A stretch of DNA of 64,000 nt from Bacillota bacterium. GTDB lineage: Bacteria > Bacillota > Negativicutes > Sporomusales > CTSoil-080. Location of the stretch: assembly GCA_017889625.1 (NCBI GenBank), contig JAGGAD010000002.1:119940-183939 (forward strand), given 5' to 3'. A program made the position numbers and the translations under genes. Under the pieces are notes generated by a model. It was not told the origin of the DNA. It saw only the letters and a program-made list of their open reading frames with translations, and made no database searches. Shown here one piece after another: positions 22,197 to 23,643 of the stretch (within the stretch, counting starts at the first letter, position 1; every line of letters begins with the position of its first letter).

Positions 22197-23324
22197 ATGG
22201 GATATAAAAATGAGACGGGAACAGATGAATGTTCATGCTGCACGGTTAGCTCAAATCGTGAAACCTGTTGCGGCGAGAAAGCGTCTTTGACTGGTATGCC
22301 CTGGATTCTTGGTGAGACAGAAACTTCCGTTGGGAAAGTACCACGTGTAAGCACTCAGTTGACGTTAAAAGATACGCTTGGTTCGTGGAAGGCGCGCTGG
22401 GGTATTGGGCGTATGAATTATAAAGTACCTCCAGGTCTGTATGCGATTGGGAATCCAGATGCTGAATCTATGGTGCTGGTTTCAGCCAACTATAAGATGA
22501 GTTTTGATCGGCTGCGTTGTGAACTGGAGGGCCTCAATGTATGGATATTGGTAATTGATACAAAGGGAATTAATGTTTGGTGTGCAGCCGGTAAAGGAAC
22601 GTTCGGCACAGAAGAGCTGGTTAACCGGATTGCCCAAGTAGCCTTGACGGATGTTGTAGCGCATCGAACCGTGATTTTGCCACAGTTAAGTGCACCGGGA
22701 ATATCGGCCCATCAGGTTTTAAAACTGTCAGGCTTTAAGGTAATGTATGGTCCGGTAAAGGCAGCGGATATTCCGTCGTATATAGAGGTCGGTTTAAAGG
22801 CTACTCGCGAAATGAGGACAGTTCGCTTTGATATGCGGGAACGCCTGGTATTAACACCGTTTGAATTGGTCGGTACAATCAATTCTTTGCTTATTCTTAT
22901 AGTATTTCTTATGCTGCTTAACTTAGTATTGGGCAAGGCAACTTCTATATTAGGTCTTATCCGGTATACGGTATCAGATTTTGTTCCCTTTTTCGGAGCC
23001 GTTTTAACTGGGGCGGTAGTTGTTCCTCTATTATTGCCCTACATTCCCGGAAGGGCTTTTGCCTGGAAAGGATGGTTAATGGGTTTATTATGGGCAGGTG
23101 TATACATCTGGCTTATTGCTTCTCCTACTAGTTGGGTTTTGGATCTGTTTTATTTTCTGATCTTGCCGCCGATATCTTCTTATCTTGCTATGAATTTTAC
23201 AGGCTGCAGTACGTATACTTCTCTTTCCGGAGTAGTAAAGGAGATGAAGTATGCGGTACCTGCACAGATTATTTCGGCAGTTGTCGGTATCATATTTATG
23301 GTTGGTGACTTGATCTTTGCGTAA
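22197..23324 (+). CDS. hgcA: Mercury methylation corrinoid protein HgcA
   Basis: The cap-helix signature GINVWCAAGKG lies at nt 22572-22595, with the Cys codon at 22581-22583. A CFeSP-like N-terminal domain is followed by about 5 C-terminal TM helices, and an HgcB-type ferredoxin follows directly. Confidence 0.9.
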   Translation: MGYKNETGTDECSCCTVSSNRETCCGEKASLTGMPWILGETETSVGKVPRVSTQLTLKDTLGSWKARWGIGRMNYKVPPGLYAIGNPDAESMVLVSANYKMSFDRLRCELEGLNVWILVIDTKGINVWCAAGKGTFGTEELVNRIAQVALTDVVAHRTVILPQLSAPGISAHQVLKLSGFKVMYGPVKAADIPSYIEVGLKATREMRTVRFDMRERLVLTPFELVGTINSLLILIVFLMLLNLVLGKATSILGLIRYTVSDFVPFFGAVLTGAVVVPLLLPYIPGRAFAWKGWLMGLLWAGVYIWLIASPTSWVLDLFYFLILPPISSYLAMNFTGCSTYTSLSGVVKEMKYAVPAQIISAVVGIIFMVGDLIFA

Positions 23325-23337
23325 GGAGGATGGAATT

Positions 23338-23643
23338 ATGGTAAAACACAGATATCTGAAAAACGTAGTTTCACTTAAGCTGGATATAGAAAAGTGTGTT
23401 GGTTGTGGAATGTGTTTAGAAGTTTGCCCGCATAACGTTTTTAAACTGGATGAAGGAAAGACATTTATTCAGGATCGTGACTCGTGTATGGAATGCGGTG
23501 CTTGCGTTCGCAATTGTCCGGTAGAGGCACTTACTGTTAATACGGGAGTCGGATGTGCAGCGGCTATTATTAAAGGAAAATTAAACGGCACTGCGCCTTG
23601 TTGTGGCGGAACGGAAGATGATAAATCACCATGTTGCGGTTAA
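23338..23643 (+). CDS. hgcB: Mercury methylation 2[4Fe-4S] ferredoxin HgcB
   Basis: Two CxxCxxCxxxCP motifs are present (CVGCGMCLEVCP, CMECGACVRNCP), plus a conserved mid Cys (GVGCAAA) and C-terminal vicinal cysteines (PCCGG...SPCCG). Confidence 0.9.
   Translation: MVKHRYLKNVVSLKLDIEKCVGCGMCLEVCPHNVFKLDEGKTFIQDRDSCMECGACVRNCPVEALTVNTGVGCAAAIIKGKLNGTAPCCGGTEDDKSPCCG

Follow-up and report, generated by a model that had tools for sequence, protein, structure and literature searches.

An uncultured member of the Bacillota carries, on the 282-kb contig JAGGAD010000002.1, two adjacent genes whose products are named in public records [quoted passage not shown] and "4Fe-4S protein". The locus raises the question of whether these genes, at 22197-23643 of the 64,000-nucleotide stretch analyzed here (the window), are a genuine hgcA-hgcB pair for mercury methylation, and what might control such a pair and to what end. 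Our answer is that they are very probably a bona fide, intact and unfused hgcA-hgcB pair, that with the marR gene directly upstream they would form a three-gene unit, marR-hgcA-hgcB, spanning 21681-23643, and that methylmercury production can be predicted for the organism.

The first gene, hgcA (22197-23324, forward strand), is an intact frame that runs from an ATG, preceded by an AGGGAG ribosome-binding site, to a TAA stop at 23322-23324 and encodes 375 residues. We compared its product with the NCBIfam HgcA and HgcB models, which are curated equivalogs with score cut-offs. It scored 471.7 bits against HgcA_corrinoid (NF040863), 197 above the cut-off of 275 (E = 1.1e-141), with the match beginning at residue 48 and covering positions 1-322 of the 325 in the profile. 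The only Pfam domain found was the CdhD/CFeSP-type corrinoid domain PF03599 (residues 75-191; 39.7 bits, cut-off 24.8), CFeSP being the corrinoid/iron-sulfur protein. In frame within the motif GINVWCAAGKG, which fits the cap-helix consensus N(V/I)WCA(A/G)GK, the TGT codon at 22581-22583 (forward strand) encodes Cys129, which is invariant across an alignment of 30 homologous sequences and is the equivalent of Cys93 in strain ND132 (Pseudodesulfovibrio mercurii, also known as Desulfovibrio desulfuricans).

An AlphaFold model of HgcA, built from 30 homologues and free of cofactor, had a mean predicted local distance difference test (pLDDT) score of 76.6. It shows disordered residues 1-29, an alpha/beta domain, a short helix at 129-132 that would be the cap helix, and five long helices between residues 213 and 374. 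These last make up the predicted transmembrane domain (22833-23318, forward strand), with helices at 213-244, 251-279, 288-306, 313-333 and 343-374, as judged by the modeled secondary structure and hydropathy. When the model was searched with Foldseek, the top match was 9a0b, the integrative model of ND132 HgcAB (E 2e-20, TM 0.64/0.71, 41% identity over 316 columns); the next matches were the CFeSP structures 2h9a, 2ycl, 4c1n and 4djd, over about 128 residues only. The corrinoid domain, the cap helix NVWCAAGK and the five transmembrane helices follow one another in the same order as in ND132.

The second gene, hgcB (23338-23643, forward strand), begins at an ATG 13 nt past the hgcA stop, with an AAGGAGG Shine-Dalgarno sequence 7 nt upstream of that ATG; its frame stays open upstream to a TTG (23317-23643). 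It encodes a ferredoxin of 101 residues with two [4Fe-4S] sites that matches HgcB_ferredoxin (NF040864) over positions 1-93 of 93 at 126.2 bits (cut-off 99, E = 3.4e-37). The two CxxCxxCxxxCP motifs are CVGCGMCLEVCP (residues 20-31) and CMECGACVRNCP (residues 50-61), and the tail reads ...TAPCCGGTEDDKSPCCG. The cysteines are Cys20, 23, 26 and 30; Cys50, 53, 56 and 60; Cys73; and two vicinal pairs, Cys88-89 (PCCGG) and Cys99-100 (SPCCG). As in ND132 HgcB, there are two cluster motifs, a Cys73 of the same number and a terminal cysteine pair, and even the cluster ligands are numbered exactly alike (Cys20/23/26/60 and Cys30/50/53/56). Cys73 sits in GVGC73AAA, about 12 residues past the second cluster motif, and G(V)GC is found at that site in nearly all of 70 HgcB tails from related loci. 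An earlier note, drawn up from the letters of this DNA, had picked out the cap-helix motif and its cysteine codon in the first open reading frame, a corrinoid domain followed by a multi-helix membrane domain, and, 13 nt downstream, a 2x[4Fe-4S] ferredoxin with a mid-sequence cysteine and C-terminal vicinal cysteines. All of these are present, and the profile search that it proposed places both proteins well above the HgcA and HgcB cut-offs.

HgcA is identical to MBP2649433.1 and HgcB to MBP2649434.1, both from a metagenome-assembled genome (MAG) labeled "Firmicutes/Bacillota bacterium". HgcA homologues number at least 8,000 at E <= 1e-10. The closest, from a pair of sister MAGs, share 81% and 79% identity with it, and the closest named ones are at 69% in Lucifera butyrica, 67% in a Selenomonadales MAG and 71% in Acetonema longum, where 86% of the query is covered. 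The threonyl-tRNA synthetase of the window (43373-45283) is 81% identical to that of Anaeroselena agilis and 77-80% identical to those of Sporomusaceae, Lucifera and Sporomusa, and a TonB-dependent outer-membrane receptor encoded in the window fits a diderm Firmicute. Given the HgcA relatives, the synthetase identities and this receptor, the host is an uncultured Sporomusaceae-like Negativicute. Base composition gave no signal of horizontal transfer: GC content is 0.36-0.44 over 15-25 kb, like the flanks. As hgcAB is already known in the Sporomusaceae-like group from Acetonema longum, and these sequences are already public, the pair is an ordinary, misnamed addition to a known family.

Both proteins carry cysteine-rich tails, which the earlier note had taken for two oddities specific to this lineage. 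The tails are there; their specificity to the lineage did not hold. The HgcA tail (22197-22337, forward strand; residues 1-47) lies outside the HgcA profile, is predicted to be disordered (pLDDT <50 at residues 1-29) and opens with MGYKNETGTDECSCCTVSSNRETCCGEK. In the stretch DECSCC...ETCCGEK it has Cys12, 14 and 15 (CSCC, 12-15) and Cys24 and 25. Among the best 120 HgcA homologues, nearly all have three to six cysteines in two clusters upstream of the conserved core, and one has 19; this last, P0080 (405 residues), represents an extreme of the tail, with the 19 cysteines in repeated CC-S-T/A-D-N units. For a broader view, we compared tails across 79 genome loci from many phyla, anchored on the cap-helix cysteine. 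These loci come from the best 80 of at least 600 matched stretches in a scan of genome contigs, a set from which the nearest relatives were absent; the sister MAGs, Lucifera and the Selenomonadales MAG were reached separately, through exact-protein look-ups. A cysteine cluster is present in 51 of the 79 loci, an in-frame C-TGA (CU, with a putative selenocysteine) in 13, of the Deltaproteobacteria type, and neither in 15, so that 64 of 79 have a Cys or CU tail. In a mostly deltaproteobacterial group of loci (L036, L039, L047, L050-L052, L060, L064, L068, L069, L072 and L078), the hgcA frame runs upstream through a single TGA. The context of this codon, C-TGA-P/A/S/D, fits the selenocysteine extension that has been proposed; such genes are shortened by standard gene calling.

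Over 36 codons of the HgcA tail, the window and a sister MAG differ by 14 non-synonymous and 7 synonymous changes. Even so, Cys12, 14, 24 and 25 persist, two of them through changed synonymous codons, and Cys15 does not; because they survive such codon changes, the functional cysteines appear to be under purifying selection. The apparent conserved core of the tail is C-x-C ... CC-G. In the Negativicutes that carry hgcAB (Lucifera butyrica, the Selenomonadales MAG UBA and Acetonema longum), the HgcA tail has the same C-x-C ... CC form and HgcB the same ...APCCGG...CCG. According to Haft 2022 (bioRxiv 10.1101/2022.07.06.499078), some HgcA homologues have N-terminal extensions with a CC motif, and most others, those of ND132 and Geobacter included, carry a PCUGP selenocysteine extension. 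The tail in the window resembles these in having Cys-Cys(-Gly) within a variable linker, some 20-25 residues ahead of the conserved core. It differs from the PCUGP form reported for ND132 in being all-cysteine, and it adds a second, upstream C-S-C-C cluster, which is common in Bacillota-type HgcA and is not singled out in the passages of that preprint that we consulted. On the HgcB side, 57 of the 70 neighboring hgcB genes encode a CC within three residues of the C-terminus. Two literal CC pairs occur in 16 of 70, and in most of the rest the first site is C-x-C; two cysteine-pair sites are thus the family norm, and as many as four extra cysteines are part of the HgcB family description of Cooper et al. 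The ND132 tail has one pair, compared to four cysteines in two pairs here.

What stands upstream of the pair is less familiar. The marR gene (21734-22177, forward strand) starts at a TTG, encodes 147 residues and ends 19 nt before hgcA. Its product matches the MarR families PF01047 (43.3 bits, cut-off 24.6) and PF12802 (42.9, cut-off 27) and reaches the cut-off of none of the NCBIfam equivalogs. It is rich in cysteine, with CCG, AQCH (C53) and a C-terminal HCCE, and the cysteines are conserved: among its best 120 homologues, CCG(I/V)T precedes the winged helix-turn-helix domain in 109, (A/S/T)(Q/E)C(H/Q) is found in 113, and a CC within three residues of the C-terminus is found in 98. In 27 of the 79 loci, from Bacillota, Aminicenantes, Syntrophales/Smithella and Spirochaetota, hgcA is directly preceded on its own strand by the gene for a close homologue, and in about 24 of the 79 an ArsR occupies that position. 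ND132 belongs to the latter kind: its ArsR-like regulator is of the HTH_5 (PF01022) type and has a different operator. The two regulators are otherwise alike in being small winged-helix proteins with several cysteines, in directly preceding hgcA, on its own strand, and in having a link to arsenic genes. Among the nearest relatives, an HTH_5 ArsR gene lies directly upstream of hgcA in Lucifera and the Selenomonadales MAG, where no ars operon adjoins it; the window and both sister MAGs instead combine MarR with a complete ars operon.

A candidate promoter and operator for marR-hgcAB lies at 21681-21711 (forward strand). It comprises a perfect palindrome, GTTGCAAATTGCAAC, at 21681-21695 and an extended -10 element, TG-n-TACAAT, that ends at 21711. 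A promoter scan and a search for inverted repeats place a -35-like TTGCAA inside the palindrome, 18 nt before the TG-extended TACAAT. In the two sister MAGs, amid a spacer that has diverged, the footprint AATATAGTTG..AA.T.CAACAGTT.T.TGATACAAT is preserved, as are AAGGAG and the start codon. As the start codon is kept in this alignment (TTG here, ATG in one sister MAG, L085), the start of marR can be fixed at 21734, in agreement with the gene call. Across genomes, 23 of 36 marR loci have the core TTGYA-N3-TRCAA within a 270-nt promoter window (26 sites in 9.7 kb), and there are only 4 sites in 1.126 Mb elsewhere, a 753-fold enrichment in marR promoters; with one mismatch allowed, 32 of the 36 loci have a site. 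The 15-bp palindrome GTTGYA-N3-TRCAAC, conserved across phyla, is therefore a plausible operator for the co-encoded MarR.

The Cys-rich MarR subfamily and this operator also occur together at L002, L006, L030, L055, L065, L071 and L088-L093. In one predicted protein from a Logan assembly, P0068 (554 residues), MarR and HgcA form a single polypeptide, which could be a real fusion, the result of a lost stop codon or an assembly artifact. In the papers that could be searched, we found a single sentence on a MarR upstream of hgcA, covering Dethiobacter alkaliphilus and Geobacter daltonii, and the preprint of Gionfriddo et al. on the ArsR-like regulator makes no mention of MarR. A Cys-rich MarR-type regulator of hgcAB is thus hardly described in the literature, and the upstream module is the new part of this locus.

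Is this regulator devoted to hgcAB? We sampled six MarR homologues from long contigs, out of 820 at E <= 1e-5. In three of them (L090, L091 and L093), marR precedes hgcAB, with a GNAT gene between marR and hgcA in L091. In the other three it heads operons with ArsM-like methyltransferase genes, and the idea of a MarR dedicated to hgcAB was therefore rejected. In Hydrogenispora ethanolica (L088) the order is marR-arsM-methyltransferase-arsR-arsD-arsA, with an ArsM that scores 303 bits against NF008823 (cut-off 263); in Clostridium folliculivorans (L089) it is marR-methyltransferase-ArsN1-like GNAT; and in a Clostridiales MAG (L092) marR is followed by an ArsM-like methyltransferase gene, with acr3-arsR divergent upstream. 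The same operator lies about 50 nt before marR in L088, L089 and L090. This MarR subfamily is thus linked to genes for metal(loid) methylation that lie in arsenic neighborhoods. At L093, a gene for a 458-residue pyridine-nucleotide-disulfide oxidoreductase (Pyr_redox_2 plus a dimerization domain; 5644-7020) lies directly downstream of marR-hgcAB and is followed by acr3.

The neighborhood in the window is of the same kind. An ars operon, arsR-arsC-arsD-arsA-acr3, occupies 15521-19516 on the forward strand (Pfam HTH_5, LMWPc, ArsD, ArsA_ATPase and SBF). It is headed by arsR (15521-15835), the only ArsR gene of the region, followed by arsC from 15855, arsD from 16289, arsA from 16626 and acr3 from 18446. 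Directly upstream of arsR is a small gene of the MazE/AbrB type (15069-15320); AbrB/PrlF-like genes have been proposed as regulators of hgcAB in archaea (PMC10349881). The interval from the ars operon to marR holds genes for an extracytoplasmic function (ECF) sigma factor (from 19804), an AhpD-like protein with a CECGCGGHC tail (from 20824) and a DGC-domain protein (from 21119). The AhpD-like protein, one of two encoded in 20824-21493 with the DGC-domain protein next, is a 90-residue AhpD/CMD-like protein with a CxxC core that gave weak matches to models of arsenic-linked AhpD-domain selenoproteins. Past the DGC gene, a terminator-like hairpin of 14 pairs followed by a T-run (21537-21568, forward strand) delimits the marR-hgcAB unit on its upstream side. 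A second hairpin, CCATGTTGCGG / CCGCAACGTGG, spans the hgcB stop (23629-23658, forward strand); it was read from the sequence, and the promoter and terminator scan flagged only a short part of it. Its T-run is poor and it may be a weak terminator, and the next gene may or may not be cotranscribed. That gene encodes a GNAT acetyltransferase (23748-24245, forward strand) that is ArsN1-like, with 110 bits against NF040504, below the cut-off of 210.

The ars operon followed by marR-hgcAB is found in both sister MAGs (L085 and L086), where the outer flanks are different, and the GNAT gene downstream of hgcB is also kept in L086. The ECF sigma factor, AhpD-like and DGC trio is present in L085 and absent from L086; within 4 kb of hgcA, it was seen in the window and L085 only. 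We therefore rejected these three genes, and the GNAT gene, as general members of the hgcAB unit. The L085 locus (7001-10829, from the same sample) has a further peculiarity: an opposite-strand gene for a molybdopterin oxidoreductase (2 kb, 670 residues) splits hgcA from hgcB, and its HgcB is nearly identical to that of the window.

Several observations weigh against our interpretation of marR-hgcAB as a unit for mercury methylation under its own regulator. The hydropathy scan of HgcA gave four hydrophobic segments, some of them merged, where the AlphaFold model has five helices, and in this cofactor-free model the cap helix is of low confidence, with pLDDT below 50 at residues 128-134. The window has a single operator site, and since 44 of 100 shuffled sequences give at least one match at one mismatch or fewer, this site is not significant alone; the weight of the operator consequently lies in its position across genomes. 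The ligand of MarR may have nothing to do with mercury, given that half of the sampled homologues head ArsM-like operons. The host, finally, is an uncultured MAG, and mercury methylation by the pair stays a prediction.

Could the pair be something else, or do nothing? The earlier note had named one way to be wrong, a non-methylating paralogue such as a fused HgcAB-like protein or the CFeSP/CdhE corrinoid protein of the Wood-Ljungdahl pathway. Both models do match significantly, and it is after such a protein that the databases name HgcA; the scores, though, fall below the curated cut-offs, at 188.9 bits for HgcA and 61.4 for HgcB against 285 for the HgcAB-like fusion (NF043039) and at 67.8 against 306 for CdhE (NF003195), while HgcA far exceeds its own. 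The CdhE model aligns to residues 75-197 only, through its last 123 positions, and in a sequence search of the PDB the CFeSP large subunits align to residues 76-197, or 122 residues. The homology with AcsC/CdhE (2h9a, 2ycl, 4djd) accordingly concerns the Rossmann-like corrinoid domain, over about 125 residues. CFeSP has an N-terminal 4Fe-4S domain and a TIM barrel, both missing from HgcA of the window, and lacks the membrane domain and the cap-helix cysteine, which HgcA has, the latter in the exact motif. With the two genes unfused, and a TAA stop plus 13 nt of spacer with a Shine-Dalgarno sequence between them, we consider a paralogue extremely improbable. A pair that is intact and nonetheless silent or inactive, through tight repression, lack of corrinoid or weak methylation, so that gene presence overpredicts methylmercury, seems to us unlikely, if less remote. 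HgcAB is reported to be expressed at extremely low levels even in model strains, the operon is headed by a repressor-type gene, and neither a cobalamin riboswitch nor a cobalamin-synthesis gene was seen within the window, although 64 kb is too small to judge corrinoid supply; near hgcAB, a scan with Rfam detected neither a cobalamin riboswitch nor any other RNA element, and its only hit was a T-box at 49017-49284. Both frames are full length relative to their profiles, however, and the synonymous codon changes between the sister MAGs point to purifying selection on the functional cysteines. In published surveys, moreover, every tested methylator has hgcAB, and non-methylators lack it or have heavily altered forms.

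A third alternative disputes the purpose of the genes and not their identity: these would be true hgcAB orthologues selected for handling arsenic or another metalloid, by methyl transfer or protection, with mercury methylation as a side reaction. The unit follows directly on arsR-arsC-arsD-arsA-acr3 and precedes the ArsN1-like GNAT gene, and this block is kept in the two sister MAGs despite their different outer flanks. The same MarR and operator are found at arsM or ArsM-like genes in Hydrogenispora, Clostridium folliculivorans and the Clostridiales MAG. In other lineages the upstream regulator of hgcA is an ArsR, and the one in ND132 controls hgcAB and responds to arsenic (Gionfriddo et al. 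preprint). Gene neighborhood is correlative, however, the context of MarR comes from six homologues, and arsenic as a substrate of HgcAB is hypothetical. The link of the ars operon to marR is also loose, with the sigma factor, AhpD-like and DGC genes lying between them here and absent in one sister MAG. On balance, we hold this explanation to be possible and somewhat doubtful. A broader form of it, which we offer just as tentatively, is that about a third of hgcAB operons are under the Cys-rich MarR and its operator instead of the known ArsR-like regulator, and that HgcAB stands in the same slot as ArsM, whose arsenite-methyltransferase operons this regulator and operator head in genomes lacking hgcAB. 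From this shared regulatory slot, it would follow that a thiophilic metalloid is what MarR senses and that the native role of HgcAB is the methylation or handling of arsenic or other metalloids and not of mercury.

Returning to the preferred reading, that of a genuine mercury methylation pair, we assume that it acts like the ND132 pair. In ND132, Cys93 is needed for methylation and has been proposed as the lower axial ligand of cobalt, HgcB Cys73 and the C-terminal pair (Cys94/95) are required in vivo, and the five-helix transmembrane domain is the architecture of the HgcA family (Cooper et al.). S-Adenosylmethionine methylates cobalamin in purified ND132 HgcAB, with HgcB as the proposed reductant. 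By analogy, HgcA would be a membrane-anchored corrinoid protein in which, once loaded with its cofactor, Cys129 would act as a ligand of cobalt. Cob(I)alamin would be methylated, with S-adenosylmethionine as the donor if the ND132 enzyme is a guide, and the methyl group would then be passed to Hg(II). HgcB, as a ferredoxin with two [4Fe-4S] clusters, would re-reduce the cobalt, and its Cys73 and flexible tail of cysteine pairs would deliver Hg(II) and take away CH3Hg+. The N-terminal tail of HgcA is the all-cysteine version of the CC/CU extension that most HgcA proteins carry, and probably an extra arm for handling Hg(II) or another thiophilic metal. Transcription most likely starts from the promoter with its -35 element inside the palindrome. 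The Cys-rich MarR would repress it by covering that element, and a thiophilic metal(loid), for which an arsenic species is the obvious candidate, would release MarR.

Elsewhere in the window, a TonB-dependent uptake cluster at 2800-13445 encodes a periplasmic binding protein, a radical SAM protein, a 381-residue open reading frame, an FmdE-like protein, an O-methyltransferase, a FecCD permease, ExbB, ExbD, TonB, an ABC ATPase and a TonB-dependent receptor. It has no riboswitch, and its substrate may be heme, a siderophore or a corrinoid. The T-box leader at 49017-49284 (108 bits) lies upstream of a gene for a thiamine-pyrophosphate enzyme that is acetolactate-synthase-like (49364-51061). Two long open reading frames have no Pfam match, one at 33018-34853 (reverse strand, 611 residues) and one at 4930-6075 (forward strand, 381 residues).

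This study adds one more predicted methylmercury producer, hidden until now under a generic "CO dehydrogenase-like" annotation, which is unsurprising in itself and useful for catalogs of mercury methylators. The MarR with its conserved cysteines and its 15-bp candidate operator provides a testable handle on the control of hgcAB and on the native purpose of these genes, and a regulator that appears to drive either hgcAB or arsM offers a natural comparison. Finding the ligand of this MarR could show which signal induces the mercury methylation genes across a large part of the Firmicutes, Syntrophales and Spirochaetes.

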